A DNA stretch of 64,000 nucleotides from an uncultured Alphaproteobacteria bacterium (lineage in GTDB: Bacteria; Pseudomonadota; Alphaproteobacteria; Paracaedibacterales; JAKBAR01). The stretch spans positions 10,805 through 74,804 of the forward strand of contig CALBMH010000001.1 in NCBI GenBank assembly GCA_937896365.1. Reading direction: 5' to 3'. How positions within the stretch are numbered: the first letter of the stretch is position 1; each line of letters begins with the position of its first letter. The notes beneath the pieces were generated by a model that was not told the DNA's origin, searched no databases, and saw only the letters and a program-made list of their open reading frames with translations. Shown here one piece after another: positions 28,805-49,054 of the stretch. Both the position numbers and the translations under genes were made by a program.

Positions 28805-30796
28805 CTAGCGTTTAGGCGGTCCGTACATATCATCATGCTTGCCAAAAGCACGTTTGAAGAGGTGATTGAGGATGACGTTGAAAGATTCAGCTTTAGGCGC
28901 GTTATTAAAACGCCCTGTATAAAGGAAACGGATAATATGATCGCGTTGATCGAGAGTCAAATCGATAAAATGCAAGCGAGCACTATCAGATGTGCAATGC
29001 ATAATCTTAGCTGGAATTTTTGCTCCATCAATATCCAGATGCACGAAGCTATTTTGAACGTAAGGACAACTTCCTGTAATATGAGCCCCAGAAAGAGACA
29101 TATCTTCAATTTTAATACCCACTTGTTGCCCATCTATACATATCCTTGAAGGATGATAAACAGGAAAACGCTCCTCTTGGCGTCGCCTAGGGTGCTCAAC
29201 ACTCAAAAAAATCATCAGAAGTAAAATAAGGCAATTAAAGACTGACCACGAAGCTGCAATGGGGAAAAATGCATTCGAGGAGTTATTACTGATGCTTGTA
29301 TTGAGGCTAATAAGAATACCTCCAAGAGTAAGCATTAAAAGAATGAAGGAAACCCAGAAGGAATAAGGATGATAAAAACGCTTTTTTGAGTTATTTGCAA
29401 ACCGTCCTTTAGGTGTTACGCCAAATCCCTTTGAATAGGGATCAAAAAGACTATTAATAACAGTTGGAAGAACGTGGATAGCGTTAAGCGTATTACTTGC
29501 TGTATTAATCAATGGAACAAAGTGATAGGGCATAATCCACATTTCATAAGCGAAATTGAAAAGAATTACAGGCAGTTGATAGTTCAAAAGAACACTATAG
29601 TGATCAAGGTAAACAGAAGGAACCCCCGTCCACAGAAAAACGATAGGAATAATATGAGCCATAATGCGTGTAACGGGGCTAAAAAGCCAATAGGTTGGAA
29701 AGAAGATAAAACGATGAATAAAGCTAAGATTAGGACCAAGTGGTCCCATTTTGCTGTAAAAAGCTTGAATCGTTCCGCGGCACCAGCGCTCACGTTGAGT
29801 CATAAGGCTTGCGAGCTCTTCAGGAGCAATGCCTTGACTCAGTTTTTCATTGAGATAGCGTGTGACATACCCATGCCGTAAAAGAGTGAGGGTTGTGAGC
29901 AAATCTTCTGTGATAGACGATGTTGGCACGCCACCGCATTCTTCCAACGCTGTACGCCTTGCAAGGCTTGAAGACCCGCACCAAAAGGCTGCGTCCCAAC
30001 CATCACGCGCTGGCATCATCACATCAAAAAAAAGACGCTGCTCGTCAGGCGTGGTGTTATGAAGATGAAGATTTGCTTGGACAAAGTCCTTATTAAAAAA
30101 ATGTTGAGGTGTTTGAACAATAGCCACTTTTGAATCGGTAAAAAAACCTATGGTACGATAGATAAAGTTGCGATGGGGAATAAAATCCGCATCTAATGTC
30201 ATGACAAATTTCCCATTTGTGAGCATCGATGCATGATTAATATTCCCTGCCTTAGCATGGACGTTGTCAGCTCTACGAATGTAGCCCGCACCTTTTTGCA
30301 TACAAAACTCACGCAGCCAATCACGTTTTCCGTCATCAAGAACCCATATCTTGAGCTTATCCTCTGGCCAATCAAGATGAATCGCCCCTACAATGGAACG
30401 TTCAACCACATCAATACCTTCATTGTATGTAGGAATGAAAACATCCACTGTAGGGAGCATGTGAGGTGGCAGAGCTCTAAGAACTTTTTCATAGCGGTTT
30501 GCTTCTTCACTCCTATCCGTATTCTTGCAAAGCAGAAGATAAAAACTCGATGTCTCAATAAAGATGAAAATCTCATTTATAAAGCAAACCCATATCCAAA
30601 CGCCCTCAAAAGAAGGCATGGGAGCTATCAAGATACTACTGCCTATACGCCAAATAATATAACGGACAAAAAGAACTATCGCAAAAAAAGCAATATACGT
30701 TCTGTGATGCCCGTTATGATGATCAAGGCGAGGAAAAACCAGAGCAATGACAAGAAGAACAAGAAAGGTAAAAAGAAGATTTTCTAATAAATGCAT
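28805..30796 (-). CDS. BcsA-family processive beta-glycosyltransferase (GT2) with C-terminal PilZ domain
   Basis: N-terminal TMs precede FIPTYNEG, VLDDGKR, HAKAGNINHA, LDADFIP, VQTPQHFFNKDF, FWCGSSSLARR, TEDLLTTL and QRERWCRG (QxxRW). More TMs follow. The PilZ motifs are RRRQEER (RxxxR) and DMSLSG (DxSxxG). Confidence 0.85.
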   Translation of the reverse strand: MHLLENLLFTFLVLLVIALVFPRLDHHNGHHRTYIAFFAIVLFVRYIIWRIGSSILIAPMPSFEGVWIWVCFINEIFIFIETSSFYLLLCKNTDRSEEANRYEKVLRALPPHMLPTVDVFIPTYNEGIDVVERSIVGAIHLDWPEDKLKIWVLDDGKRDWLREFCMQKGAGYIRRADNVHAKAGNINHASMLTNGKFVMTLDADFIPHRNFIYRTIGFFTDSKVAIVQTPQHFFNKDFVQANLHLHNTTPDEQRLFFDVMMPARDGWDAAFWCGSSSLARRTALEECGGVPTSSITEDLLTTLTLLRHGYVTRYLNEKLSQGIAPEELASLMTQRERWCRGTIQAFYSKMGPLGPNLSFIHRFIFFPTYWLFSPVTRIMAHIIPIVFLWTGVPSVYLDHYSVLLNYQLPVILFNFAYEMWIMPYHFVPLINTASNTLNAIHVLPTVINSLFDPYSKGFGVTPKGRFANNSKKRFYHPYSFWVSFILLMLTLGGILISLNTSISNNSSNAFFPIAASWSVFNCLILLLMIFLSVEHPRRRQEERFPVYHPSRICIDGQQVGIKIEDMSLSGAHITGSCPYVQNSFVHLDIDGAKIPAKIMHCTSDSARLHFIDLTLDQRDHIIRFLYTGRFNNAPKAESFNVILNHLFKRAFGKHDDMYGPPKR

Positions 30797-30882
30797 AGAT
30801 CAAACCTCCCCTTTATGCCTTGCATTCTTACTCTCCTACACTCTCCTATTCTATCCATTGCACACATTACATTGCCATCTCC

Positions 30883-32106
30883 CTACAGCCTTCCCCTCAT
30901 CCCTTCGAAGGTCACTTCCCCTGTTCGCCCTACATGGCAAAAATCAGCAGCACTTTCATAAAGATCTTCTTTATCAATTTCAATGATCACTTGCATTTCA
31001 TGGGGACGGCGGATAGGGGCCACCCCTGCAACAGATTTCTCTGGTTCAGCAAAGACAGCGCCCCCCCGAATATGCGTAATCATCCCATGAATTGGCTTTG
31101 TTCCCCCCCGTAGTTTGACCTTGACTCTTTCACCGATTTTTATCTTCTCGAAATAACCTTCATGGATTGTCATATCGATAAACACTTTGCTGCAGTCAAT
31201 AACATCAACAACTTTTGTTTTCTCATCAATATGCGTTCCCGGCATGACATAGGACCGCAGAACAACACTAAATTCTGATGCTCGAATATCGCGCTTTTCA
31301 AGCCCATTCAAACGATCTGTCTCTATTTGAATGCGCTCACTGATGACTTGAATCCGCGTTGTGTATTCGTTAATGCGCGAATCAATATCAGCGACCCGTA
31401 TACGTATTTCATCAATGCGCTGGTCTTGATAGGTGACTTCGCTACGTCCGTCTTGGTTAATAAAGATCCCTTTGCGAATAAAATTAAGTTCTACAACCAA
31501 ACGATCAAGCTCCAACTTAGCCTGATCAGCGACTTTCGTTGCACGTTCCGCTGTGAAAAAGGTACTATCCAAACTGGAAACGGAAATCGTACCTTTCTTA
31601 TAGAGTTCCTTTTTTCGATTGAGCAGGCGTGATGCCTCGGTCACAGAGTCGATAAGCTCTTGATGGCGTTTTTCCACCCGCTTAATATCATACTCCAAGC
31701 GCTCTGCTCTTGATGATAAATGACTTTTCTTACTCTCTTCGAGTTCTTCTTTGAGTTTTATAAGATTTGTTTTTTCTTCTTCAAGGCTGTCAATTCGTTC
31801 TTTTAGCGATTCTTTTTCGACATTGAGTTGCCCCACTGTAGAACGGTCAACGGTCGTGTTCACAAACTCAGCAATAATATCCCCTTCATGGAGCTCTGTT
31901 CCAATGGGGGGTGGAGCTTTTGTTACAATGCCATCAATCGGTGTGGTAAGCGTTACAATACGGGCGCTGACAACAGCATTAGAACTATACGTAAAAAACA
32001 AGTAGGGAAGATAGATAGCTGCTACAACACAAAGCAGCCCGATACCAAACGCAAGGCGTAAGATCTGGAACTTTGTAAAGCCAAAGCCTTCGGGAGCTGC
32101 AGACAA
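30883..32106 (-). CDS. HlyD-family periplasmic adaptor (membrane-fusion-like) protein
   Basis: An N-terminal TM (LAFGIGLLCVVAAIYLPYLFF) is followed by a lipoyl-like segment (ARIVTLTTPIDGIVTK..GDIIAEF). A long coiled coil and a beta-barrel-like C-terminus follow. It lies immediately upstream of, and co-oriented with, the GT2-PilZ gene. Confidence 0.75.
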   Translation of the reverse strand: MSAAPEGFGFTKFQILRLAFGIGLLCVVAAIYLPYLFFTYSSNAVVSARIVTLTTPIDGIVTKAPPPIGTELHEGDIIAEFVNTTVDRSTVGQLNVEKESLKERIDSLEEEKTNLIKLKEELEESKKSHLSSRAERLEYDIKRVEKRHQELIDSVTEASRLLNRKKELYKKGTISVSSLDSTFFTAERATKVADQAKLELDRLVVELNFIRKGIFINQDGRSEVTYQDQRIDEIRIRVADIDSRINEYTTRIQVISERIQIETDRLNGLEKRDIRASEFSVVLRSYVMPGTHIDEKTKVVDVIDCSKVFIDMTIHEGYFEKIKIGERVKVKLRGGTKPIHGMITHIRGGAVFAEPEKSVAGVAPIRRPHEMQVIIEIDKEDLYESAADFCHVGRTGEVTFEGMRGRL

Positions 32107-32296
32107 ATCTAGGCCTATTTAAAATACTACTTGCAATTCTAGACACTTAAAACTTACCCAAGTGTTAATTTTTTGCATCACTTAGAGTGTTTTTTATCTT
32201 TTTGAGTAGAAAATAAGGATTTGAGGATTGACCCAGAGTTTTTATGCTGCTTAAGATTGACTTTGTAGTGAAATCATTAACTGAAGGTAAATCCCT

Positions 32297-32572
32297 GTGA
32301 ATAAACAAGAACTTGTTACACACGTTTCTCAAAACTCTGGGCTCACAAAAGCTGATGCGGAACGTGCTCTTGATGCAACGATTGAGGCTGTGACATCTGC
32401 ATTGAAGTCTGGCGATGATGTACGGCTCGTTGGTTTTGGTACATTTACAACCGCGGAACGTCAGAAGTCTGAAGGCCGTAATCCCCGCACAGGTGAAAAA
32501 ATTAATATCCCTGCTACACGTTTGCCAAAATTTCGTGCAGGCAAGCAGCTAAAAGACGCTGTTGCAAAATAA
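32297..32572 (+). CDS. hup: HU-family DNA-binding protein
   Basis: The stretch MNKQELV..GLTKADAERALDA..VRLVGFGTFTTAERQKSEGRNPRTGEKINIPATRLPKFRAGKQLKDAV is HU-typical. The product is 91 aa with a GTG start. Confidence 0.93.
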   Translation: MNKQELVTHVSQNSGLTKADAERALDATIEAVTSALKSGDDVRLVGFGTFTTAERQKSEGRNPRTGEKINIPATRLPKFRAGKQLKDAVAK

Positions 32573-32683
32573 AAAGAAACAAGAGCGCACGCGTAAGGCG
32601 AAAAATCTGAATTATTTTCTTGAAGATTGGGGGAAAAATGGTTAGGAATAGTCTTACGCGCTTAGGATTTGTGAAGCCTAAGA

Positions 32684-32758
32684 GGGTGATTAGCTCAGCG
32701 GTAGAGCATCTCGTTTACACCGAGGCGGTCGGCGGTTCAATCCCGTCATCACCCACCA
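32684..32758 (+). tRNA. tRNA-Val (anticodon TAC)
   Basis: A manual cloverleaf fits. The acceptor pairs GGGTGAT with ATCACCC and the D arm pairs GCTC with GAGC. The anticodon stem-loop is TCTCG-TTTACAC-CGAGG. The T arm is GGCGG-TTCAATC-CCGTC, and the CCA is encoded. Confidence 0.9.
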
Positions 32759-32763
32759 TCCTA

Positions 32764-32865
32764 TTGTTTCTTCTTTCGTTTTTCATTTTATCATCCTGCG
32801 GCAAAAAAGGTGCTCCCGAGCCTTTCGAAGGTATTGATTATCCCACAACGTATCCAAAACGATAG
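32764..32865 (+). CDS. possible mini-lipoprotein (LptM/YifL-like CGxKG motif)
   Basis: The in-frame tail of ORF 32620-32865 after the tRNA reads (TTG)FLLSFFILSSCGKKGAPEPFEGIDYPTTYPKR. It has a hydrophobic leader, the lipobox-like LSSC, and then GKKG. The start codon is uncertain (TTG 32764) and no clear RBS is seen. Confidence 0.3.
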   Translation: MFLLSFFILSSCGKKGAPEPFEGIDYPTTYPKR

Positions 32866-32878
32866 GCAAGCTATCTTT

Positions 32879-34255
32879 TCATGCAAAGAGAGGTTCTTTC
32901 AAGGAGGCTGAATAATTTTCTCCCAATGACTGGACTAAAAAGTCGATCACATCATGAACCAAGGATTCGTCCTCACTTTGAGCCATCAAGCGAAGGCTTC
33001 CTTCAGTACCCGAGACACGCACGACAAGGACACCTTGGTGACCAATCATTTCCTCAGCTTGCCGAATAATATTCTTTGAAGCGTCACTCTCCATGGGCAT
33101 AAATGCACCGAAAGGAAGAGTATGCGTCACTTGTGGAAGAGGCTCATAAGGATTACCAAGGACACTTAAAGGTTTACCTGATTGAATGAGGATTGCCGCA
33201 ACTTGAAGCGCTGTAATAAGTCCATCAGCTACAGGGGAAAAATCGTGTAAAAGAATATGACCGGATGGTTCTCCCCCTGTGTTCATTCCCTCTTGAAACA
33301 AAGAGGCAAGGACATAACGGTCACCCACTGGGCTACGAACAAGAGCAAGCCCAAGAGTCTTTAGGTAGCGTTCTAATCCTCTGTTCGCCATCACCGTTGA
33401 AACGATCCCCCTGCCCTTGAGTTTACCCTTTTCATAGAAGTATGGAGCAATGAGAGCCAGTATCTGGTCCCCATTGACACTCTCCCCCTTCTCATCCAGT
33501 AACACAAGCCGGTCAGCATCGGCATCTAGAACCACAGCAAAGTCAGCTTTATGCTCAATCAGAGTTTTTTTTGCAAGGTGTATATCTGTCGTTCCACATT
33601 TAACATTTGTGTTAAACCCATCCGGATGCACTCCCACAGGAATGATATGTGCTCCCAATTCTGAAAAGATGGTAGGCGCCACAGTGTAAGCAGCACCCTG
33701 GGAACAATCTAAAACGATCTTAAGACCATCCAATTGAAGCGTCTTTGGAAACGTCCCTTTCACAAACTCTATATAACGCCCTGTGGCATCACCAAGGGTT
33801 CTTACTTTTCCAAGATTTCTATAATTCGGGAGAGGAAGAGATACGATCATCCGTTGCTCAATGGCAAGTTCCACATCATCAGAGAGCTTATATCCATCGG
33901 GCCCCAAAAGCTTAAGGCCATTATCGGGAAAGTAACCGTGAGAGCCTGTGATCATGACACCTAAATTGGCACGTAACGACCTTGTAAGCAAAGAAACGGC
34001 CGATAGAGGAATAGTTCCCAGCAAGATAACATCAAACCCCATAGACGTGAATGCTGCTTCAAGCGCTCCCTCAATCATATCTCCTGAAACACGGGTATCC
34101 TTTCCAATAACCACGGTACGTGGATAACTTCCCCGAGTAAAAAAAGATGCTGCTGCTCTTGCCAATCGTATGATCGTTTCAGCCGTCATAGGCGGTACAT
34201 TCACACGCCCCCGAATGCCATCTGTTCCAAAAAGACATCGCTGAGTGAGCATCAT
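32879..34255 (-). CDS. phosphoglucosamine-mutase paralog (alpha-D-phosphohexomutase family), last gene of the pga cluster
   Basis: It is collinear with the canonical GlmM at 55467-56816, sharing FGTDGIRG, VVIGKDTR, DADADR, GGEPSGH and VSGTEG. The phosphoserine loop reads GVMITGSHGYFPDNG instead of GVMISASHNPYPDNG. Its ATG overlaps the pgaC stop (ATGA). Confidence 0.8.
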   Translation of the reverse strand: MMLTQRCLFGTDGIRGRVNVPPMTAETIIRLARAAASFFTRGSYPRTVVIGKDTRVSGDMIEGALEAAFTSMGFDVILLGTIPLSAVSLLTRSLRANLGVMITGSHGYFPDNGLKLLGPDGYKLSDDVELAIEQRMIVSLPLPNYRNLGKVRTLGDATGRYIEFVKGTFPKTLQLDGLKIVLDCSQGAAYTVAPTIFSELGAHIIPVGVHPDGFNTNVKCGTTDIHLAKKTLIEHKADFAVVLDADADRLVLLDEKGESVNGDQILALIAPYFYEKGKLKGRGIVSTVMANRGLERYLKTLGLALVRSPVGDRYVLASLFQEGMNTGGEPSGHILLHDFSPVADGLITALQVAAILIQSGKPLSVLGNPYEPLPQVTHTLPFGAFMPMESDASKNIIRQAEEMIGHQGVLVVRVSGTEGSLRLMAQSEDESLVHDVIDFLVQSLGENYSASLKEPLFA

Positions 34256-35514
34256 TGGCGTTCAGAACTCCAGTCAACTTTTTTCTTATGTTCACGCCAT
34301 AAGATGGGCATGGCTAACCACGTGATAACCACCATAAAAATCCAATAAAAAGCAGGGTAAAGAATTATATAAGGAAAAAATCGCACAACATCACGATCGT
34401 GCTTAATCTCAATAAGCCCACCTATGGTAAGTTGTAGCAAGCTGAAACTCATCATAATAACAATCCATTGATAATTAAAAATAAGATGCTCGTGATAAGG
34501 AAAATAAGAAGAAAAGGAACTTAGATAAGATGATGAATTTGAATAAAAAGAAGCAAAGAACTTCGCAGACTCAAAAAAAACGATAAGTCCATAAAGAGTA
34601 TTCCACAATATGGAAATAATTGCCTCATAGAAAATTGTCCACATACGACGCATAGACCATTGTTTTAAGATACCTTTATGCACTCTTAAAACCTGCATGA
34701 GCCCTCTTGCCCATCGCAGGCGTTGCTTGAAAAAACTTCTCAAAGTATCAGGCACATGCATCCATACAATCGCCCGTGGTTCATAGCGCACATCCCAGTG
34801 TTTCTTTTCAAGGCGCCAGGTCACATCAATGTCCTCTGTATACATATCTGGACGGAAACCGTTAATACTAAACAGGGCTTCTTTTCTAAAAGCAGCAACG
34901 ATGCCGGAAACTGTGATAATACGCCCCCATATTCTTTGGGAGCGTCGCAATAATCCAATAATGGACGTAAAATCAATAACCTGAATGCGCGTCAAGAAGT
35001 TTGTCGTATTCTTTACCCTTGGGTGCCCTGTGACGGCCCCCACACGAGCATGTTGAAAGTGCCATGTCAAATGTTGCAGCAAGTCTGGTTCTGGTTCTGC
35101 ATCCGCATCAAGAACAACGATAACCTCCCCATTAATAAGAGGAAGAGCGTCATTAAGAGCAAGTGACTTACCCTGATTGATCTTCTTATCAATAAGGCGT
35201 ATGTTCGCGTTTTTTAAAAAGGGACTCAGCTTTTGAAACGTCCCATCTGTGGAACCGTCATTGATGACAATGATCTCGAAGTTTGGGTAGGTCATCTGAG
35301 ACATGGCTAAAAGAGCACTTTCAATCAAGCGCTCTTCGTTATACACGGGAACGAGCACAGAAACTCTCGGTACATGTTTTGGAAAGACTTCATGATGCAT
35401 TTCTTCCCAACGAATTTTGTAGGTTACAGAAAAAACGAGCCACATGACAGACGTAACAATGGGATAAAACGCAACGAAAATAAAAATGGCTGTGTATATG
35501 TCTGCCCACATCAT
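34252..35514 (-). CDS. pgaC: poly-beta-1,6-N-acetylglucosamine synthase (GT2)
   Basis: PgaC-typical stretches are VLVPVYNEE, VINDGSTDGT, VLDADAEPEPD, TEDIDVTWRL and QRLRWARG, with flanking TMs. The gene sits in a pgaA/pgaB context. Confidence 0.88.
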   Translation of the reverse strand: MMWADIYTAIFIFVAFYPIVTSVMWLVFSVTYKIRWEEMHHEVFPKHVPRVSVLVPVYNEERLIESALLAMSQMTYPNFEIIVINDGSTDGTFQKLSPFLKNANIRLIDKKINQGKSLALNDALPLINGEVIVVLDADAEPEPDLLQHLTWHFQHARVGAVTGHPRVKNTTNFLTRIQVIDFTSIIGLLRRSQRIWGRIITVSGIVAAFRKEALFSINGFRPDMYTEDIDVTWRLEKKHWDVRYEPRAIVWMHVPDTLRSFFKQRLRWARGLMQVLRVHKGILKQWSMRRMWTIFYEAIISILWNTLYGLIVFFESAKFFASFYSNSSSYLSSFSSYFPYHEHLIFNYQWIVIMMSFSLLQLTIGGLIEIKHDRDVVRFFPYIILYPAFYWIFMVVITWLAMPILWREHKKKVDWSSERQ

Positions 35515-35900
35515 TTACTGCTCTTCACTTTTAAAAATGTGTAATATTTTACTTGTCCTTCTTTATCACAATCCACAACAATGATTTTATTTTTTTTAAG
35601 TTTCGCTATATTTGCAACGACTTTATACCCCAGCAAATCTCTTTCATACTCCCAAACTGCTTGAGGTATTTCCTTTCGTGGTTTAAGAGTCCTATGAAGA
35701 AATAAGTGACGCCGTATCCACGTGAGAACACCCACTAAGAGAAGGAAGACTTCCGCAGCCACAATAACAAGAATGGTTTTATAGAAATGTTTCTGTGATA
35801 AAGACGCATAACAAACACCTGCTATATACAAAGACCAACAACAAGAAAGGGCGCAGACATGCTCGCATAGCTTTAAGTAAGATAAGCGAGGTCTTTTCAT
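35511..35900 (-). CDS. PgaD-like small inner-membrane protein (tentative)
   Basis: The product is 129 aa with two N-terminal hydrophobic spans and a basic cytoplasmic tail ending KLKKNKIIVVDCDKEGQV. By eye this is comparable to the E. coli PgaD C-terminus (..LQKSHRMSVHFTSQGQI). Its stop overlaps the pgaC ATG (ATGA). Confidence 0.5.
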   Translation of the reverse strand: MKRPRLSYLKLCEHVCALSCCWSLYIAGVCYASLSQKHFYKTILVIVAAEVFLLLVGVLTWIRRHLFLHRTLKPRKEIPQAVWEYERDLLGYKVVANIAKLKKNKIIVVDCDKEGQVKYYTFLKVKSSK

Positions 35901-36081
35901 CGGATTCTTCCTCGAGTTGGCATCTGACTCTCAGACAATAAAAAGTGGAACGTAGGAAAACCATGACAAACCCCTTGACCCCACGCAATTAACATTGAAA
36001 TGACCTTTTGTCGCAGGAATACGCCAGAGATACAACATTGAATGATAAATATATGAATGTGTGCATCTTTCTCTCTTTTCC

Positions 36082-38013
36082 TTATGGTAAGTGCACAAAG
36101 CTTTGTAAAGATATCCCTTCCTTTATAAGAGAAATATCCGGGTGATTTTGAAAAAGGTTATCTGGATAGAGACTAAAGTGGCGTGTTCCCTTCGCCGATA
36201 AGTCTCTTAACTGTTCCAAAAGAATTTTGGTATCGATGGGGGCGTTTTTATCGCGCCAGTTAACTGTTTGGAGTTCAAAAATAGTTTTCTGGAGTCCTGT
36301 GGGATTGTTTTTAACCTTTTCATGCAATGCATCAAGCCACGCAGAAGGATCTTCAGCCTTTTCCATATAGGGCATAGCCATTAAAGCGACATAGTCGTAG
36401 GCATAAAGAAAGTCGTGGAAATTTTGGGCATACCATGCTTCACTCTCAGGAGAGAGGACAAGATCCGCAAAGAGGCTACGTGTCGTTTGAATTGTTGGCC
36501 GGAAAACCTTTACTTTTTCAATGATTTCTTTTGTAAAGTCGATAAGAGATCTGCTCTTCCAACGGCTCCATTTTGAAAAAAGAACAGGGTCGTTTTTGAT
36601 CGTATCTATAGAATCTGGAAAGCCTGCCTTCTTCATCGCTTCCACAGCAAAGGGGGACCAATCCTCAAAGTCTGTTAGAATATCATCATGAAAAGCAATA
36701 CCATCAATAGGGGCGTTGAAGGCTAAACTTTCGTATATTCCTAAAATCTTTTGCCGTGCTAGAGGATGAAAAATCGACGATCTTATGTACTGTTCGCGGT
36801 CAATACACTGACAATCGCTCCCAGGTATGAGGGATTTCACAAGAAGATCGTCATTCTTAAAATCAAAAGCCATAAGAGGAAGCCACGCGAAAACTTTCGC
36901 ATGAACCCGCGTTGCTATTTGCCAGCAAATCCTATTAAAAATATCGCTTCTTATAGGAAGATGGGAATTATGAAAATACAGGCTCTCTGCATAACCCTTA
37001 GCATTTATGTCTGAAAACGCCTGGAGAAACACTGTATTAATTTGGTACTGGTATAAGCGTTCAATTAGTGCATCGATATTTTTCTCCGTTTGCTTGGGGT
37101 CAGGATCATAGATGTGATCGAGGTCAATACGCACAGCTCGTAGAGTACTTTCTTGTGTGTCTTGGAAATTTTTCAAAGCAGAGATAAATGCAGAAAGAGA
37201 TTGCTCTTGCGTGTAATAACAGCGACTGACCGCATCAAGATGAGTGACATCCTTATTATAACCCTGGCCATCTAGAGTGAGAAAAACCTTTATTCCCATC
37301 TTTTTAGCCATATCAAGAGAAACCTGATTATAACGACCATAGGGCCAGACCATCAAACGCGGATTCTTTCCAGTTTTCTTCAAAATACGTTCTTGGTTCA
37401 TTCTTAAATCTTCTTCGATACGTATCTTATAATGATCGAAAGACTCATAGGCTTCCTGTTCTTTATTATAAAACCGTGTGACAAGGGCTGCCTGGGTCGT
37501 TCCTTGGGGATTTGCCACGATGCCTTTATGCAACGCAAAGGTGTGCGACGCGATCTCAACAAGTCCGGAATCAGCCATTTCCTTTATTTGACTCCATGTC
37601 AAGAATTTTTCAGCAGAGATGGTTTTGGAACCGTAGATAATAGTCTTCCCCTCTTCCTTTGCATCAATCCAACTGCCCACAACTCCGAGTACGGCTGGAA
37701 AGTTGAACGTTTTTAAAAGTGGGTAAACAAACGTATAAAAACTTTCGTATCCATCATCAAATGTTAAAAGAATGGATTTATCTGGAAGGGTTTTCTCTCC
37801 AGCTTGGGCTTTCAGGAGATCGTCAGGATGAATAGGATGATAACCATTTTCTTTAATCCATTGGAAATGCCCCACAAGATCACCCCTCGTCACAGCGTCA
37901 TAATCTACCTGATCCGCTGTTAAAACAACATCGTGATAAGCAATTGCCATAAAGTGATTTTCAGCTATCCCTGCTTCAACGATCAAAAAAATCCAGACAA
38001 AAAAATAAAACAT
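36082..38013 (-). CDS. pgaB: PNAG N-deacetylase/hydrolase PgaB-like
   Basis: A signal-like N-terminus precedes a CE4 deacetylase motif (LLTFDDGYESFY). A roughly 330-aa C-terminal glycoside-hydrolase-like domain follows. The size (643 aa) and position between pgaA and pgaC fit PgaB. Confidence 0.8.
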   Translation of the reverse strand: MFYFFVWIFLIVEAGIAENHFMAIAYHDVVLTADQVDYDAVTRGDLVGHFQWIKENGYHPIHPDDLLKAQAGEKTLPDKSILLTFDDGYESFYTFVYPLLKTFNFPAVLGVVGSWIDAKEEGKTIIYGSKTISAEKFLTWSQIKEMADSGLVEIASHTFALHKGIVANPQGTTQAALVTRFYNKEQEAYESFDHYKIRIEEDLRMNQERILKKTGKNPRLMVWPYGRYNQVSLDMAKKMGIKVFLTLDGQGYNKDVTHLDAVSRCYYTQEQSLSAFISALKNFQDTQESTLRAVRIDLDHIYDPDPKQTEKNIDALIERLYQYQINTVFLQAFSDINAKGYAESLYFHNSHLPIRSDIFNRICWQIATRVHAKVFAWLPLMAFDFKNDDLLVKSLIPGSDCQCIDREQYIRSSIFHPLARQKILGIYESLAFNAPIDGIAFHDDILTDFEDWSPFAVEAMKKAGFPDSIDTIKNDPVLFSKWSRWKSRSLIDFTKEIIEKVKVFRPTIQTTRSLFADLVLSPESEAWYAQNFHDFLYAYDYVALMAMPYMEKAEDPSAWLDALHEKVKNNPTGLQKTIFELQTVNWRDKNAPIDTKILLEQLRDLSAKGTRHFSLYPDNLFQNHPDISLIKEGISLQSFVHLP

Positions 38014-38017
38014 AAAC

Positions 38018-40492
38018 TTAGAACCTTATATTAAAATTAGCGAAGAGTGTTGTGGAATACTCGTGGACGCCATCGTACGTGGAACGTTTACGACGAATGC
38101 CGTAGCTCAAATAATACCAATTCTGGTAGTCCAAAATGTGCTCGTAAGAGACACCAAACACCCATGCTCTCCTATACCCTTTTTCCCAATACAATCCCAA
38201 GGCAGGCGTGAGACTATGCTTGAAAGAGAACTCGTAATGACGGTAAAGAGTTTGATTGAAAATAGGAGACACAGACACATAAGAGTCTTTAAGGGGACTA
38301 TAATAGGGAACATCATTTATTTTTGACTTACGCCAACCCAGGTCGATTCTGAGATCTGTCGTTTCTCTAGGTCTCTCAACAAGCTGACCTTGTATGTATG
38401 TACTCCCACCCTGCCATGCGTTGCGTCCTGTAAATTCTTGATCAAAAAACGAGACACCAAACTTAAGAGCATTGTTATAATAATACCCCGCACCTATCTG
38501 GAAATAGTGAGAAGAAATCTTATTCGCAAGTGCTCTTCCGGGTGTTTCAAGGCTGTGAAGATCAACGACCCCAGAAAAAGACCACTCATCAGAGGGAGTA
38601 CAATTCAAAACCAACTTTGTCCCAACCTGTGAATGACCTGCATAATGATCACTATGAAATGCCATCGTTGTATTTAATGATGTAGATGTGTACTGAACAC
38701 CCGCCCCCTTTGAAACGTAAGACAAAGATCCTTCTGGAAATTCTCCTGTAAGATATCGGCCGACAAGAAAGGCTCTAAAATTATAAGCAATGGGCCTTGA
38801 ATAAAAACTTCCCTCGAGAGAAGATGTACCTTTTGAACTCAGTCCCCCTTTCTCAAAACTATACCGTGACTCAATCTCCATTGAGTTGTAAGCATTCCAA
38901 CTTTTTTCTAATTTTTTGATACTTTCATCAGAGGGGTAAGAACTTTTTAGCATTTCTAGAAGTTTTTCCGCTTCCTCGTACTGGGAAAGCGACATAAGCG
39001 CTCCCACACGACTTACCTTTAACCCAAGATTTTCTTTATTATTCGTTTGGCCAATATCAAACTCTTTTTTCGCTGCTCTTGGAAGACCCCTTGCAAGATA
39101 CGTTTCTCCCAAAAGTCTTCGAAACTGGGTATTATAGGGAGCTATCTTGATGATATCCCTTAATTTCTCTTCTGACTTTGATAACAAATTCGCATACAAA
39201 AAAGAAGCATGATAGCATTCTTCAAGATTTTGCCGACTTTCATTTGACCGTTTCATTCCGCTAATGGTCGTTAATTTTTCCTGGGCACCCCGTTGATTTT
39301 TTATAAAAGTCAAACTACTCTTCAGTTCTTCGTTCTCAAGGAGGGTATAATATATCCCCTTGATAGAATCGATGCTTGATGGAGACTTTCGAAGAACGAA
39401 AGAGAAAATCGTTTTTGCCTCTCTCAAAAAGCGTAAGGTTAAATACGAATCACCCACAGCTTCTAAAGACTGTAGAGGAATGTCCTCATTCGATTTTCCC
39501 TGCAATAAAAGCTTTTCATAAAGACGAAGAGTATCTTCGTGGCGCCCTCGCCGGTTATAGACAATGAGCAAATCACAAAGATTATTAAGAATTTGCCTCT
39601 CGTCTTTTTTCTGTGAGGCTTGATCCGTGAGTTTGTCAATAGCACGATCAAAATGACTATAATTTTCAGGGTATTCTGACGCAATTCCCCATTTAATATC
39701 CAAGGCTGCTTGATTCGATTTGATTTTTTCTAAAAGGTCTTTTCCTAAGATTTGAGTCTTATCTTCTTGGTCACGATACTGTTCGTAGATCCCCATGTGT
39801 TCTTGAGAATGCAGCATGAGAATATTTCTTGCCTTCTTATCCTTGAACTTTTCTGCTTCGTAGGAAGCAAGCGCCTCATTCAATGCTTTTGCCCTTCCTT
39901 GGATTGCTTCTTTATCTGTGGGAATTTTCTCTAATGCCTCTTCGTAGTGCTTTAAAGCATCAACATAAAATCCCATGCGCATGTAAGAAAGAGCTATAAG
40001 ATTTAGGACTTCTACACCCTTATGAGGGTCATCTTTAAAACGCAGCAATAGATTAGGAATTTCGTACGGATTATTTTCTTGAAATAAAACAAAAGCAAGA
40101 CCTATATAACCATCAATGTCACCAGGTTTCTTCTGCAAAAGAAAACTATAAAAAAATCTTGCTTGATGGGTATACTCAAGCTCCCTGCAATTCCTCGCAA
40201 GCACTTCGATAACGTACAGTGGGAGGTGTACAATGGGTTCTGTTACCCTCTTTCTAAAAAGAGAATAAGACTCCTTGTGGCGACCTTGCCACGTTAAAAC
40301 ACTCATATAATCGTAAACAAGCTGTTCATACCACCCCTTGCTGCGTATAATGTAATCAAATATCGAAAAAGCCTCATCATAGTGTCCTTGGCGTGCAAGT
40401 TCTACGGCATGATGATGTTCCCTCAAGTCGTCATTACCATAACAATAAGAAATGCATAGAATAAAATATGAAAATACAAGTACTCTTAACAT
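38018..40492 (-). CDS. pgaA: PNAG export outer-membrane porin with TPR domain, PgaA-like
   Basis: A signal peptide is followed by many TPR-like helical repeats. The C-terminal region has alternating beta-strand character and ends in ..FANFNIRF, the OMP terminal Phe signature. The 824-aa product is encoded immediately upstream of pgaB. Confidence 0.75.
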   Translation of the reverse strand: MLRVLVFSYFILCISYCYGNDDLREHHHAVELARQGHYDEAFSIFDYIIRSKGWYEQLVYDYMSVLTWQGRHKESYSLFRKRVTEPIVHLPLYVIEVLARNCRELEYTHQARFFYSFLLQKKPGDIDGYIGLAFVLFQENNPYEIPNLLLRFKDDPHKGVEVLNLIALSYMRMGFYVDALKHYEEALEKIPTDKEAIQGRAKALNEALASYEAEKFKDKKARNILMLHSQEHMGIYEQYRDQEDKTQILGKDLLEKIKSNQAALDIKWGIASEYPENYSHFDRAIDKLTDQASQKKDERQILNNLCDLLIVYNRRGRHEDTLRLYEKLLLQGKSNEDIPLQSLEAVGDSYLTLRFLREAKTIFSFVLRKSPSSIDSIKGIYYTLLENEELKSSLTFIKNQRGAQEKLTTISGMKRSNESRQNLEECYHASFLYANLLSKSEEKLRDIIKIAPYNTQFRRLLGETYLARGLPRAAKKEFDIGQTNNKENLGLKVSRVGALMSLSQYEEAEKLLEMLKSSYPSDESIKKLEKSWNAYNSMEIESRYSFEKGGLSSKGTSSLEGSFYSRPIAYNFRAFLVGRYLTGEFPEGSLSYVSKGAGVQYTSTSLNTTMAFHSDHYAGHSQVGTKLVLNCTPSDEWSFSGVVDLHSLETPGRALANKISSHYFQIGAGYYYNNALKFGVSFFDQEFTGRNAWQGGSTYIQGQLVERPRETTDLRIDLGWRKSKINDVPYYSPLKDSYVSVSPIFNQTLYRHYEFSFKHSLTPALGLYWEKGYRRAWVFGVSYEHILDYQNWYYLSYGIRRKRSTYDGVHEYSTTLFANFNIRF

Positions 40493-44264: not shown

Positions 44265-45383
44265 TCAGGGGCTTTGCTCAAAGGCTTTGACGATTTCAAT
44301 GCGTTTCTTCTCCTCTGGGGTAGCGTTCGCATCAATCAGCGTCCAGTCGTAGAGTTTACCCATCTGTTTTTCAAATTTTCCCACGAGGTGAAATGTGCTC
44401 TTGACGAGGCCTCTCTCCTCTGGAGTAGGCTCACGGTTTTCAATAGGATATTGGTGAGTAGCAAACGAAAAAGGCCCTTTTTTAATTGTGCTTTGTGCCC
44501 CACTTATGATGAGTGTTCGTAAATTATGACCAACAAAGTCTGTAAGGTTGAGTAGCTTTTCCTTTTCTGAAGCAGTGCTCGTTCCGATATACTGCTGGGA
44601 CAGCTGTGTGTAAAAAACACTGAGACGAACAAACTCGTTAAAACCACCTTCACATCGCCCACTCGTCTTCTCCACACCCAAAGGGTAGGGAATGGACGCG
44701 TCGTCTCTCATCCCGCGCAATTTTTCCAGGATATCCCCTGGTTTTAGTGTTGTTGAAGGGAGGAAAGAGGCTTTTAAGAGCTCATAGAAAGGTTGATAGA
44801 GATAGATTTCGAGCGTTCTTTCTTTGCTATCACCCTTTTGTAGACATCTTACAATTTCTTTCGTGCCTTGACTTTTTGTCAGGAGACTCGCAAGATCTTG
44901 AAGTCTGACAAGGGCAACATCCTTGACTTCTCCACCTGTTGAAGTTGAAAAAGCATTTAAATTTATAGGATGTTTTTTTAAAAAATAGAGACGATAGGCA
45001 AAGTCATCCTTCAACCAGCGGTGAGGAGCTTGTGGGTTACCAAACGTGACTTTATCAAAGTAATAAGCCGTTTCAAGATCCTGTTGTATCACAGCCACAA
45101 CACCAGGAATTTCTTCACCTGTTTCCCTCAAAGCGCCCTCGGAAAAGAGACTTTCCTCCTCCTTGTCAAGAAGACCCCCCAGTGTTCCCCAAGGATAATC
45201 TGTTCTAGGACTATTCCTTTGTGTTAGAAGAACGTAATCGATATTATTAACTTTGGTAAAGAAAAGAATCCCAGCACCGCCATTCGTCGTACTTGCAACA
45301 GATGGAGCGTACAAAGGGTAAACAACGATAAAAGCGATAAAAAACAACGCACAACGCATGAGGAGCATCTCTGAAAAGAGCAT
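44265..45383 (-). CDS. signal-peptide protein with divergent Nudix-like N-domain and unknown C-domain
   Basis: The N-terminal hydrophobic leader is MRCALFFIAFIVVYPLYAPSVAS. It is followed by GILFFTK..YVLLTQRNS..WGTLGGLLDKEEESLFSEGALRETGEEIPG. This is Nudix-fold-like, with REtGEE retained but non-canonical spacing. About 200 further residues have no recognisable motif. Confidence 0.45.
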   Translation of the reverse strand: MLFSEMLLMRCALFFIAFIVVYPLYAPSVASTTNGGAGILFFTKVNNIDYVLLTQRNSPRTDYPWGTLGGLLDKEEESLFSEGALRETGEEIPGVVAVIQQDLETAYYFDKVTFGNPQAPHRWLKDDFAYRLYFLKKHPINLNAFSTSTGGEVKDVALVRLQDLASLLTKSQGTKEIVRCLQKGDSKERTLEIYLYQPFYELLKASFLPSTTLKPGDILEKLRGMRDDASIPYPLGVEKTSGRCEGGFNEFVRLSVFYTQLSQQYIGTSTASEKEKLLNLTDFVGHNLRTLIISGAQSTIKKGPFSFATHQYPIENREPTPEERGLVKSTFHLVGKFEKQMGKLYDWTLIDANATPEEKKRIEIVKAFEQSP

Positions 45384-45569: not shown

Positions 45570-46169
45570 ATGGGCGGAAAAGAGACTCTCGCAGTCAAGA
45601 AGCGTGATGTTTTTGGAACAGGTGCTGCACGCGCTTGTCGTAGAGCGGGCATGGTTCCGGGCATCGTATATGGTGCAAGTAAAAATCCAGAAGGGATCGC
45701 TTTGGACCCAAAAACACTCGCAAAAGAACTTCACAAACCGGGTTTCTTCTCGCGTATTTTCCATCTTGATGTTGATGGTCACAAAGAGCAGGCTCTTGTG
45801 AAAGACATTCAACTTCATCCTGTAACGGATGCGCCTCTTCATATTGACTTTATGCGCGTTACGAAAGGCACGAAGGTGCATGTTCACATTCCCCTTTATT
45901 TTATCAATGAAGACAAGGCTCCTGCAATAAAGCGTGGTGGTGTGTTGAACATTGTTCACCATAGCCTGGAAATCATTGCAGCTGCTGATGCGGTCCCTGA
46001 GTCGTTCACCATTGATCTTTCAGTCCTTGATCTGTCTAAAGGGGTTCATCTGTCCGACATCGAAATGCCAGCAGGCGTCGTTGCTGCCCATGCGGCTCGG
46101 GATAACACACTTGCAACGGTCGTGATGCCAAAAGGTGACGCTGAAGCAAAAAGCGAAGAGGCTGAATAG
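45570..46169 (+). CDS. rplY: 50S ribosomal protein L25 / general stress protein Ctc
   Basis: L25/Ctc-typical stretches are RDVFGTGAARACRRAGMVPGIVYG, LVKDIQLHPVTDAPLHIDFMRV and PESFTIDLS, with an acidic tail. Confidence 0.9.
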   Translation: MGGKETLAVKKRDVFGTGAARACRRAGMVPGIVYGASKNPEGIALDPKTLAKELHKPGFFSRIFHLDVDGHKEQALVKDIQLHPVTDAPLHIDFMRVTKGTKVHVHIPLYFINEDKAPAIKRGGVLNIVHHSLEIIAAADAVPESFTIDLSVLDLSKGVHLSDIEMPAGVVAAHAARDNTLATVVMPKGDAEAKSEEAE

Positions 46170-46228: not shown

Positions 46229-46250
46229 GCAGGGGGGCCTGCTATTTTTT
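46229..46250 (+). terminator. weak intrinsic-terminator-like hairpin after rplY
   Basis: GCAGG-GGGG-CCTGC is followed by TATTTTTT. The stem is only 5 bp. Confidence 0.3.
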
Positions 46251-46338
46251 GACAATCAAAGGCTTGGATTCTTTTAACACATTGTTAAGGATCTTTTTCT
46301 CATCATAAACCACGAGGAAAGAATGATGGAAAGAGATA

Positions 46339-47487
46339 TTGTTGTTTTATTTTTTTTGTAGATCAGTACCCCCTTATGTTCTATGGCCCTCTCTCAGTGA
46401 GAAGGAAAAGCTGTTAAGCTTCCCATCCTTGGTGGTTATTGACCCTGACTTTGTGGAAGGGAAAAGGTTTCCCTTGAAAGATTTGTCTTACTATCGATGG
46501 GCGCTTCTCACATACTCAGTGAAGAAACAACAATGTATGGCAGGTTTTTTTACAGCGAGCCAGGTTTTAAAGGGATCTTTCTTACACTGTGTCAGTGTCA
46601 AGGAAGAAGGATTAGAGTCTTACCTTATCAGTTTTTATGAAAAGGGTGTTGCTCTCCCTAAGATCTTCTTTTTAGATGATTTGTTCTTTCAAGCAATCAA
46701 GAGTGCTCGCCTTCCCATGGGGCATTCCATCAATCAGTGGGTTTTTTTATTACGCAAAAAAAAATCTTTCTATTTTTTGAGCTGTTTTCATGATAACGCC
46801 TTGGTTTTTAAACGTACATTTGATAGTTCATCCTGTCTCATGGAGGAGATGACTGCGTCCCAAGCTTATCTGAAGCGTTTTGGATATAAGAATCATCAGA
46901 TTCAGGTTTTTTTCTTTGCCAATCAAGCGGAAGATTTCCCAATAATGGAAAACATTATTTGGAAGCGTGTTCCTTACAATCAGGATGACGTGATTCAAGC
47001 GGGGTTAAGATCGTCCCAGCGACTCATTTTTTCACTCCCTCACACGCCATTACTCAACAAAGCATGGTATTTCTCCTTGCTAAAGCGTGTTGGCGCCTTT
47101 GTTTTAGCTCCTTTGTGTGGGCTCTCTTTCTTTGCTTTTCTTTCTGTTCACTATGCCTATCATGAGGGAACTTTTGAAAAGCTCCGGAGGGACTTGGAGA
47201 AAGCGCAAGAACTTCCTAAGGACTACGCTCTTTTTCAGCAGCTGGAAGTGCGGCAAAAGCTCTTATTTGACGACGTTTTTTGGTCTAAACTGTCATCTTT
47301 TCTGAAAAACAGGGTGTTACCTGAGAGTATTGATGCCAATTTTATCGAGAATTCAGTCAAGCTTTCTTTTTCCAGTCCGTTAGATTTATCGTCTTGGACG
47401 CCGTTAAAAAAGAATTTTCAAGATTATCGTGTAACCATAATGCCACGATCAATTGCCTTTTTTAATAACCAAGCAAAGGCGCGGTAG
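46339..47487 (+). CDS. hypothetical bitopic membrane protein, GspL / PilM-PilN-fusion-like architecture
   Basis: About 245 aa of soluble N-part is followed by a single TM (VGAFVLAPLCGLSFFAFLSVHYAY). About 110 aa follow, beginning with a coiled-coil-like EGTFEKLRRDLEKAQEL. There is no catalytic motif. An RBS plus ATG at 46323 is out of frame by one T of a T8 run. Confidence 0.5.
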   Translation: MLFYFFCRSVPPYVLWPSLSEKEKLLSFPSLVVIDPDFVEGKRFPLKDLSYYRWALLTYSVKKQQCMAGFFTASQVLKGSFLHCVSVKEEGLESYLISFYEKGVALPKIFFLDDLFFQAIKSARLPMGHSINQWVFLLRKKKSFYFLSCFHDNALVFKRTFDSSSCLMEEMTASQAYLKRFGYKNHQIQVFFFANQAEDFPIMENIIWKRVPYNQDDVIQAGLRSSQRLIFSLPHTPLLNKAWYFSLLKRVGAFVLAPLCGLSFFAFLSVHYAYHEGTFEKLRRDLEKAQELPKDYALFQQLEVRQKLLFDDVFWSKLSSFLKNRVLPESIDANFIENSVKLSFSSPLDLSSWTPLKKNFQDYRVTIMPRSIAFFNNQAKAR

Positions 47488-48111
47488 ATGTTCACAGAGT
47501 CATTGAAAAAAAATTCACACGTTAATAAATCAATGGTATGGTTTTGTCTCTGGGGATGTTTGAATATCCTATGTATTGCTACGATAGTCGTATCGATTCT
47601 CTTAATTTCTGAGAATATCTCCCATTGGTATCAAGAGAAGAATCGTTTGGAGCATCGTTTCACCCTTGCAAAAAACAAGCAAGTCCAGGCTCAAAATCTT
47701 GTATCGATGGAAAATCTAAAAAAATCTTATACAAAAATTTACAAGATATTCGATAGAAAAGTGTTGGAATCCTGGTTACAAGAGTACGCAAATCACCATC
47801 ATTGTGAACTGTCGTTGCTATCACAAAAAGAGCCCCTACCCTCTTTTTTTAAGACAAGCGATGGAGTGGCTGAAGAACATACGGGTTATCCCTTGACACT
47901 TCATGTGCAAACTTTTTTTGACCACACTCTTTTTATGCTTATGAATAAACTTTTAGAAGAAGCGCCCTTTTATATCAATATACAAAGTTATGCACTTAAA
48001 CGTTTACAACCTCTGACAAATGGTGTTTTGATGAACATTAAGCAAGGTCAAAAATCATATTTTTTTGAAGGAAAAGTTGAGTTTCTGGTTGTGGCGTCTT
48101 CTCCTCGTTAA
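47488..48111 (+). CDS. hypothetical bitopic membrane protein, GspM/PilO-like architecture
   Basis: Its ATG directly abuts the stop of the upstream ORF (TAGATG). A short N-tail precedes a TM (MVWFCLWGCLNILCIATIVVSILLI). A heptad-like stretch and a roughly 120-aa C-domain follow. Confidence 0.5.
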   Translation: MFTESLKKNSHVNKSMVWFCLWGCLNILCIATIVVSILLISENISHWYQEKNRLEHRFTLAKNKQVQAQNLVSMENLKKSYTKIYKIFDRKVLESWLQEYANHHHCELSLLSQKEPLPSFFKTSDGVAEEHTGYPLTLHVQTFFDHTLFMLMNKLLEEAPFYINIQSYALKRLQPLTNGVLMNIKQGQKSYFFEGKVEFLVVASSPR

Positions 48112-48502
48112 GATGAGTGCGGCCCCCTTGTGCCCATCCTACGCAAAAGAAGAGGTCGTGAGTATTCTGCAAAAGCCTTCAGAGCAAAAACAAGTAGACG
48201 AGGCCCTTCAGTATCAGGAAAGCCAAAAGAAAGAAATGAAAGAAAGCCCTTTGAGAGAGAACCCCCAGCCTCACTCACTTTATACGATTGGCGCTCTGTT
48301 TTATACATCAGAAAAATCTTGGAGTATCTGGGTAAGCAATACAATTTACAACCAAGATCACAGAAAAATTAGCGAAACAATAACAGTCCGAGCGCTGAAT
48401 TCCCAAACGGTGGAATTAGCACACCTGGAAAAGAAAATTCTTCTTTTTGTGGGCCAGAGCTATGATGCCAACTCAAAGACTGTGATACCGAATACAGCTT
48501 AA
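48065..48502 (+). CDS. hypothetical exported protein, PilP/GspC-HR-like small beta domain (tentative)
   Basis: A TTG start at 48065 gives a signal-like leader (KLSFWLWRLLLVKMSAAPLCPSYA). The alternative ATG at 48113 lies 2 nt after the upstream stop. A Lys/Glu/Gln-rich linker is followed by a strand-like C-domain (LYTIGALFYTSEKSWSIWVSN..ITVRALNSQTVELAH..ILLFVGQSY). Confidence 0.45.
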   Translation: MKEKLSFWLWRLLLVKMSAAPLCPSYAKEEVVSILQKPSEQKQVDEALQYQESQKKEMKESPLRENPQPHSLYTIGALFYTSEKSWSIWVSNTIYNQDHRKISETITVRALNSQTVELAHLEKKILLFVGQSYDANSKTVIPNTA

Positions 48503-48506
48503 TCCT

Positions 48507-48911
48507 TTATACGCCATTTATCTCGAGATCTTTCTCACCCTCATGATCCGAAATGTCATCATCATGGTCATCAGCGTCAACATCATCATCTTCTTCCTCT
48601 CCAGTATCAGCAGTAGCCATAGAGGTTTGGATGTAATCACTTAAGATTTCCTCATCCAAGTCAGATTCAGCTTCTTCAACAAAACCAACGCGTTGCATCC
48701 CCCTGACGACCTGTTCACGAAGGCTTTCAGCAGAAATTGTCTGTTCTGCAATTTCACGAAGCGCAATCACAGGATTCTTGTCATTATCACGAGGAACCGT
48801 GATATGTGCACCACAGGATATCTCCCGAGCGCGGCGAGAGGCCAGAACGACGAGATCGAAACGATTCGGAACAACTTCAATGCAGTCTTCAACGGTAACG
48901 CGAGCCATCAT
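48507..48911 (-). CDS. rpoZ: DNA-directed RNA polymerase omega subunit
   Basis: The stretch [30 protein letters not shown] is omega-typical. It carries an unusually long poly-acidic C-terminal tail ([20 protein letters not shown]). Confidence 0.9.
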
Positions 48912-49054
48912 CTTTCCTAAAAAACCTAATAATCCAAATAACTCTAAAGGACCCACAGGAATTCTTCAAGGAAAATACATGCAAAAATACCCTCTAAAGG
49001 TCTTTTGGGAGGTTTCGGTGTTTTCTGTTAGTTTCTTAATTAATTGGTAAGGTT

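Follow-up and report, generated by a model that had tools for sequence, protein, structure and literature searches.

What do three tightly coupled genes encode when their products match no sequence family and their neighbours are housekeeping genes? The question is raised by a 64-kb stretch of DNA (the window; 64,000 nucleotides (nt) of contig CALBMH010000001.1, assembly GCA_937896365.1) from an uncultured alphaproteobacterium, in which three open reading frames (ORF1, ORF2 and ORF3; together the trio) lie between the genes rplY and rpoZ. A reading of the letters alone (the sequence-only reading) had likened the trio to the inner-membrane platform of type II secretion systems (T2SS; GspL and GspM) and type IV pili (T4P; PilMNO), and predicted structures now support this likeness at the level of fold for ORF1 and ORF2, while the sequence of ORF3 is consistent with it. 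With a probability of about 0.58, we favour the explanation that the trio is a highly diverged, sequence-orphan inner-membrane alignment subcomplex of the type IV filament machines, which comprise T2SS, T4P and mannose-sensitive haemagglutinin (MSH) pili, with its partners encoded elsewhere. This explanation is favoured because of the fold of ORF1, with its matches to PilM, GspL and FtsA, the PilO fold of ORF2, the N-in, single-pass topology of both proteins, the gene order, the translational coupling and the conservation of the trio.

Gene arrangement and predicted folds

The three genes are tightly packed and co-oriented on the forward strand, as described in the sequence-only reading and borne out by the ORF listing and the raw sequence: ORF1 (46339-47487, 382 aa, TTG start), ORF2 (47488-48111, 207 aa, ATG start) and ORF3 (48065-48502, 145 aa, TTG start). 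The stop codon of ORF1 (TAG, 47485-47487) directly abuts the ATG of ORF2 at 47488 in the hexamer TAGATG. ORF3 either starts at TTG 48065, giving a 47-nt overlap with ORF2 (48065-48111, forward strand) that codes for the ORF3 leader, or at ATG 48113, one base past the ORF2 stop (TAA, 48109-48111); both junctions are as originally read. Its alternative starts give proteins of 141 aa (the NCBI call) or, from ATG 48113, 129 aa.

An AlphaFold2 model of ORF1, built from an eight-sequence alignment (mean predicted local distance difference test score (pLDDT) 79.8; predicted TM-score 0.61), and hydropathy together place about 235 aa in a cytoplasmic domain and about 105 aa in a periplasmic part (residues 278-376, 47170-47466, pLDDT approximately 78-86), on either side of a single transmembrane segment (residues 250-273, 47086-47157, inside model helix 237-273). 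Residues ~13-223 (46375-47007), delimited by the order of predicted secondary structure and the regions aligned by Foldseek, form two RNaseH-like halves, a minimal actin-like fold. Compared with the PDB by Foldseek, the model has 34 matches at E <= 0.001, mainly to PilM, the cytoplasmic domain of GspL (EpsL, PulL) and FtsA. By E-value an uncharacterised actin-fold protein (3hrg) ranks first and PilM next (5eox, 5eou, 5eoy, 2ych and 3jc8_Ma; E approximately 2e-6 to 1e-4), with TM-scores normalised to PilM of 0.24-0.32. The cytoplasmic GspL-type structures (4pht chains X and Y, 1yf5, 1w97 and 5tkw; E 4.5e-6 to 3e-4) reach target-normalised TM-scores of 0.45-0.51, the highest being that of cytoplasmic EpsL 1yf5 (0.51). 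An exopolyphosphatase (7epq) also falls within the threshold, and the actin-like PilO2Bp of type IVb pili (4bz0) matches more weakly (E 9e-3, target-normalised TM-score 0.46).

The FtsA structures among the significant matches (E 5e-5 to 1e-3) admit another explanation, in which ORF1 belongs to the divisome or elongasome as an actin-like membrane protein, of the FtsA type or another, and ORF2 and ORF3 are unrelated envelope partners. We give this hardly any credence: the FtsA matches cover less of the target than those of cytoplasmic GspL (target-normalised TM-scores of approximately 0.21-0.34 versus 0.45-0.51), FtsA has neither a transmembrane segment nor a periplasmic domain, the adjacent ORF2 has PilO as its top match, and the bitopic architecture of ORF1 is that of GspL, MshI and PilO2Bp.

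After further helices, the end of the periplasmic part of ORF1 (residues 312-376) is predicted to run alpha-beta-beta-alpha-beta-beta (helices 312-322 and 350-359; strands 330-334, 339-343, 363-368 and 371-376), which is the fold type given for PilN and periplasmic GspL (PMC4471445). Lys and Arg residues lie N-terminal of the sole hydrophobic segment of ORF1, and likewise of ORF2, indicating an N-in topology. The model of ORF1 thus contains a GspL-type actin-like cytoplasmic domain, a single transmembrane segment in N-in orientation and a predicted ferredoxin-like periplasmic domain, the last read from the model as a sub-domain with no separate fold match. Models devoid of actin-like and ferredoxin-like folds had been named beforehand as grounds for refuting the sequence-only reading, and by this criterion the models do not refute it. 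At the fold level these features support a GspL-like identity for ORF1, i.e. a bitopic fusion of PilM and PilN, with GspL, or equivalently MshI, as the closest architecture. MshI is likewise a PilM-PilN fusion. Invariant residues of the ORF1 family are W134, R159, E170, Y177, G182, G222 and P234 (alignment A1), all but P234 within the actin-like domain, and no conserved Asp/Gly phosphate-loop columns are present in this alignment. The sequence-only reading had also seen the start of GspL proteins in the N-terminus of ORF1; this finds no support, and the GspL profiles (Pfam T2SSL and GspL_C, NCBIfam GspL) match none of the eight ORF1-family members at E <= 5.

ORF2 has a transmembrane segment at residues ~17-41 by hydropathy, and its AlphaFold2 model (seven-sequence alignment, mean pLDDT 83.7) shows a continuous helix (residues 14-72), comprising the transmembrane segment and a coiled coil, followed by an alpha/beta domain of about 115 aa (residues 90-204). 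The model and hydropathy of both ORF1 and ORF2 agree with the architectures that had been drawn by eye. With the ORF2 model, Foldseek gives a single match at E <= 0.001, which is also the top one, to the PilO chain in the model of the Myxococcus type IVa pilus machine (3jc8_Oa, E 3.6e-4); it is followed by Amuc_1100 and by Pseudomonas aeruginosa PilO (2rjz, target-normalised TM-score 0.55-0.60; 5uvr, 0.64). With a short tail, a transmembrane segment, a coiled coil and a modelled ferredoxin-like periplasmic domain, ORF2 is a PilO/GspM-like bitopic protein. A relationship of ORF2 to phage tail terminators was considered and rejected in view of weak E-values, the transmembrane segment and coiled coil, and the GspL-like neighbour.

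ORF3 consists of a signal-like leader (residues 1-28), a charged arm of about 45 aa rich in Lys, Glu and Pro (residues ~29-70) and, over residues ~71-135, a strand-rich domain of roughly 70 aa. The domain has an alternating hydrophobic pattern and the invariant residues W86, W89, E117, F128 and G130-Q131-S132 (alignments A6 and A9). In every lineage the ORF3 leader is hydrophobic and resembles a Sec signal peptide with Ala or Gly at -1. From its position and sequence pattern, ORF3 is probably a connector resembling PilP or the homology region (HR) of GspC.

The order of the trio, with an L- or MN-like, an O- or M-like and a P- or C-like product, equals that of pilMNOP, mshIJK or the L-M-C components. 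PilM resembles cytoplasmic GspL and BfpC, PilN and PilO resemble periplasmic GspL and GspM, with circularly permuted ferredoxin folds, and PilP resembles GspC-HR (PMC4471445). The documented equivalences (PilMN to GspL, PilO to GspM, PilP to GspC-HR) hold despite little or no sequence similarity, and the fold results for ORF1 and ORF2 are what has been described for the alignment subcomplex (PMC4471445). As we infer the machine, ORF1 and ORF2 would heterodimerise via their periplasmic helices and domains, and the cytoplasmic domain of ORF1 would dock a GspE/PilB-type ATPase at the membrane. ORF3, probably a Sec-exported protein in which a disordered arm precedes a small beta domain, would link the ORF1-ORF2 pair to the N0 domain of a secretin. 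Genes for the ATPase, platform protein, secretin and pilins would lie at other places in the genome, making the machine a dispersed one.

Conservation of the trio in distant relatives

All three proteins are orphans at the level of sequence. ORF1, ORF2 and ORF3 have no Pfam or NCBIfam match at E <= 1, their relatives have no consistent match at E <= 5, and profile searches of all PDB sequences with the three families returned nothing relevant at E <= 10. Pfam PilO and T2SSM and their NCBIfam equivalents are unmatched by all seven ORF2-family members, and the ORF3 family has no PDB-sequence or profile match. Among 1.84 billion representative proteins, searched exhaustively with phmmer, only eight relatives of ORF1 were recovered (E 3e-55 to 1e-7, 24-35% identity), and a word-indexed homologue search found only the query itself and one or two relatives. 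Metagenome scans with alignment A2 returned nothing and those with alignment A6 a single 1.2-kb contig; no relatives were found in scans of viral contigs. The three families (alignments A1, A8 and A9) are so far annotated just as hypothetical proteins.

The relatives are all found in uncultured assemblies, namely two GTDB metagenome-assembled genomes labelled Proteobacteria bacterium and Alphaproteobacteria bacterium and otherwise ENA, Logan and JGI metagenome contigs; carriers of the trio include GCA_021808925.1, GCA_027431635.1, GCA_027446725.1, GCA_027431675.1, JAIESS01 and the bin with IMG contig Ga0172373_10000778. Each relative contig of sufficient length carries the same trio with its order and coupling kept. 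At 16-40% identity, the three genes have stayed together in no fewer than six different housekeeping settings, the identity to the window protein being 16-31% for relatives of ORF2 and 24-40% for those of ORF3. In the relatives ORF1 and ORF2 are joined by a 4-nt start/stop overlap (by coordinates, in loci L002, L003, L004, L012 and L014) or separated by a 1-nt gap. In every lineage the leader of ORF3 is read from inside the 3' end of ORF2 in a different frame, with overlaps of 29 to more than 100 nt in the same five loci (among them L002 8555-8604; L003 3654-3736; L004 2210-2238; L014 about 3972-4168), and gene callers therefore often truncate it. The conservation of homologous trios in other assemblies rules out that the three are chance ORFs.

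The flanks differ between lineages. In the window, rplY (45570-46169; Pfam L25p and TL5_C) lies upstream and rpoZ (48507-48956, reverse strand; Pfam Rpb6) is convergent downstream, the same two flanks that had been named for the trio. Elsewhere the trio lies between dnaJ with a CZB-domain gene and gshB with hslVU (L002 and L005-L010), between rnd and rpmE with an EAL gene (L003), between lpxC and der with nuo genes (L012 and L015), or between an unknown gene (767 aa) and a PAS-GGDEF-EAL gene with polA (L014). The gene that follows the trio is accordingly rpoZ, gshB, rpmE, der or a GGDEF-EAL gene. Flanks that differ per lineage and hold no T2SS or T4P genes indicate that the trio is conserved and mobile in genomes over evolutionary time, and always detached.

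Several of these flanks have features of their own. A terminator-like hairpin and T run (GCAGGGGGGCCTGC then TATTTTTTGA, 46229-46251, forward strand; consensus match only) lies 3' of rplY and suggests that the trio is its own transcription unit. At the other end, the stops of ORF3 and the convergent rpoZ are only 4 nt apart with no clear terminator in between, and the rpoZ product extends past the Rpb6 domain by about 60 strongly acidic residues at its C-terminus. Genes with signalling domains lie near the trio in three lineages: in L014 the PAS-GGDEF-EAL gene (4532-6652) follows ORF3 by 63 nt on the same strand, in L003 the EAL gene (4616-5461) is found downstream of the trio after rpmE, and in L002 the CZB-domain gene (6355-6708) is just upstream. 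These neighbours may tie the trio to control by cyclic di-GMP (c-di-GMP), of which the PilO-SadC link in P. aeruginosa is an example, or may be there by chance. Upstream of lpxC and the trio in L015 (1-7705) are eight consecutive genes (95-612 aa) without significant Pfam match.

The start of ORF1 and one of the relatives bear on a further explanation, that the trio is left over from a lost T2SS or T4P locus, is decaying and no longer has a function. The start that had been quoted for ORF1, the ATGATG at 46323, lies in the +1 frame relative to the 382-aa ORF, a frame that closes at TAG 46359-46361. Since this ATGATG stands behind a good Shine-Dalgarno-like GAGGAA (start region 46314-46361, forward strand) and the in-frame candidates are TTG 46339 or 46342, the true start is ambiguous. 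Removing one T from the T8 run at 46349-46356 gives an in-frame fusion (MMERDIVV..CRSVPPYVLWP), and the L002 homologue begins MMGYSTYTLWP, in frame. An independent ENA contig, L001, has the same start-region sequence. The arrangement may reflect an assembly error in the homopolymer, a slippery site or a leader peptide of 12 codons.

Decay would be consistent with this unclear start, with the absence of partners from all DNA retrieved and with L013 (1448-2065), a 2.2-kb contig from an unbinned metagenome assembly in which the homologue of ORF2 is broken into two frames (71 and 83 aa). The L013 split is either an assembly error or a pseudogene, and the window, L002/L005-L010, L003, L004, L012/L015 and L014 each have three uninterrupted frames. 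Intact frames and invariant residues preserved at 16-40% identity argue for function, and translational coupling is kept and confident AlphaFold2 models were obtained from just seven or eight sequences. A relic therefore seems to us unlikely.

Search for partners and the case for a detached module

The sequence-only reading had noted that the partners of such a platform were absent from the window, and this holds. A Pfam scan of 36 window ORFs (the trio and all others longer than 300 aa, with about 14 shorter ORFs of 110-260 aa outside the scan) identified no secretin, GspE/PilB ATPase, GspF/PilC platform protein, pilin or prepilin peptidase. When all six frames were scanned for the class III prepilin motif, none turned up in the window or at any relative locus retrieved, and no flagellar gene was seen in the retrieved DNA of the window or the relatives.

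The rest of the window consists of housekeeping and exopolysaccharide genes. These encode SdhB, SecA, a peptidyl-prolyl isomerase, ATP synthase, MltA and a Tim44-like protein; MiaB, DapF, GAPDH, FolD and GroEL; a BcsA-like GT2-PilZ protein, an HlyD-like protein and the products of a pgaABC-like operon; and valyl-tRNA synthetase, a NUDIX protein, CtaG, CtaB, FtsH, GlmM, a Pot-type ABC transporter and CoxA. An Rfam scan found three tRNAs only. The exopolysaccharide block (28805-40492) comprises the genes for the BcsA-like GT2 with PilZ, the HlyD-like protein and a phosphoglucomutase, the pgaC/pgaB/pgaA-like operon and a small pgaD-sized ORF. The NUDIX protein (44265-45383, reverse strand, 372 aa) has a hydrophobic N-terminal leader, its NUDIX domain is limited to residues 46-177, and its C-terminal ~190 aa are without assignment, an unusual architecture for a NUDIX hydrolase. 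A 422-aa ORF at 704-1972 (forward strand) has no Pfam match.

Several observations count against a diverged alignment subcomplex with partners elsewhere. No type IV filament gene is present within 46 kb upstream or 15 kb downstream of the trio in the window, nor within approximately 10 kb in the relatives, and no secretin gene follows ORF3 at any locus, unlike in pilMNOPQ and mshIJKL. No member of the three families is matched by Pfam, NCBIfam or PDB sequence searches. The Foldseek E-values of ORF2 are modest, with alpha/beta folds of phage tail terminators among the weaker matches, and an hhalign comparison of the ORF1 and ORF2 families, as a test for paralogy of the PilN/PilO type, gave a probability of 0.7%, i.e. 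no signal. The leaders of the ORF3 family have no conserved lipobox, so ORF3 is probably not a PilP-type lipoprotein, and its connector fold is one that we infer. Dispersal itself has parallels, T4P and T2SS genes being reported as scattered and patchily distributed in the alphaproteobacterial Rickettsiales (PMC10847448).

The same detachment could be explained by co-option, the trio being a stand-alone alignment module that scaffolds or regulates another envelope machine, as in the flagellar cage of Helicobacter pylori, or that signals, e.g. through c-di-GMP. Consistent with this are the separation of the trio from type IV filament genes in at least six unrelated housekeeping contexts, its divergence past profile detection and the published precedent of a pilMNO operon that stands alone in a bacterium lacking T4P (PMC10823254). 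The signalling genes next to the trio in L014 (PAS-GGDEF-EAL), L003 (EAL) and L002 (CZB) are compatible with co-option and do not demonstrate it, and as neighbours in only two or three loci they are possibly due to chance. A PilP-like ORF3, if correct, would imply a secretin partner, whereas H. pylori has no PilP; moreover, the retrieved DNA holds no flagellar gene, and dispersed T4P and T2SS genes are common. On balance we regard co-option as possible but doubtful. Similarly tentative is the suggestion that the trio is a lineage-specific, self-contained envelope module that descends from a type IV filament alignment complex and works without pilins, ATPase or secretin. Such a module might be a trans-envelope scaffold or cage for another machine, or a device for signalling from periplasm to cytoplasm.

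If, as in the favoured explanation, the partners are encoded elsewhere, the trio families would be the missing L/M/C (or MN/O/P) parts that profile annotation fails to detect in fast-evolving alphaproteobacterial lineages. The T2SS and T4P inventories of such genomes would then be systematically incomplete, which profiles from the present alignments would remedy. If there are no partners, the trio would be a second, independent case in which an alignment complex has been released from its filament machine, after the flagellar PilMNO of H. pylori, and would bear on the evolutionary recycling of envelope-spanning scaffolds. Either way, alignments A1, A8 and A9 define three families hitherto represented by hypothetical proteins only.

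Comparison with known systems

One of the closest known systems is the GspL-GspM(-GspC) platform of T2SS (EpsL/EpsM, PulL/PulM). ORF1 shares with GspL an actin-like domain (~235 aa cytoplasmic part), one transmembrane segment and a small periplasmic alpha/beta domain, ORF2 has the architecture of GspM/PilO, and the two genes occur in L-then-M order with translational coupling. In contrast to T2SS, the trio has no T2SSL, GspL_C, T2SSM or T2SSC profile matches and lies outside any gspC-N operon, and ORF1, unlike GspL, is accompanied by no gspD, E, F or G in the window or in the flanks of relatives. ORF3 differs from GspC in that its signal peptide looks cleavable, where GspC has a transmembrane anchor, and in having no PDZ or coiled-coil domain.

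The gene order closest to that of the trio is pilMNOP or mshIJK, the sizes of the last two proteins agree with PilMNOP and MshI-MshJ-MshK, and the leader, long charged arm and putative small beta domain of ORF3 recall PilP. The PilM of type IVa pili is a separate, soluble, ATP-binding protein that clamps the N-terminus of a separate PilN. ORF1, by contrast, is a single fused polypeptide whose actin-like part (~220 aa) is about 120 aa shorter than PilM (~350 aa), with no conserved phosphate-binding motif visible in alignment A1. The trio also departs from the type IVa and MSH systems in the lack of a pilQ or mshL secretin gene after ORF3, of an ORF3 lipobox and of PilN, PilO and PilP profile matches. 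The bitopic proteins of type IVb pili (BfpC, PilO2Bp of Burkholderia pseudomallei and R64 PilO) share with ORF1 an actin-like cytoplasmic domain, a transmembrane segment and a periplasmic part, but they are encoded in complete type IVb operons, and the match of ORF1 to this group is weaker than that to GspL and PilM.

A further parallel is found in H. pylori, which has no T4P and carries an orphan pilMNO operon beside housekeeping genes, the products of which form a cage of the flagellar motor (PMC10823254). There PilM and PilN are separate proteins and no PilP-like gene is present, in contrast to the fused ORF1 and the putatively PilP-like ORF3. The flagellar link has been demonstrated in H. 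pylori, and no flagellar gene was seen near the trio. What the two have in common is an orphan operon of distant alignment-complex homologues (putative in the case of the trio), set among housekeeping neighbours with no other T4P gene nearby.

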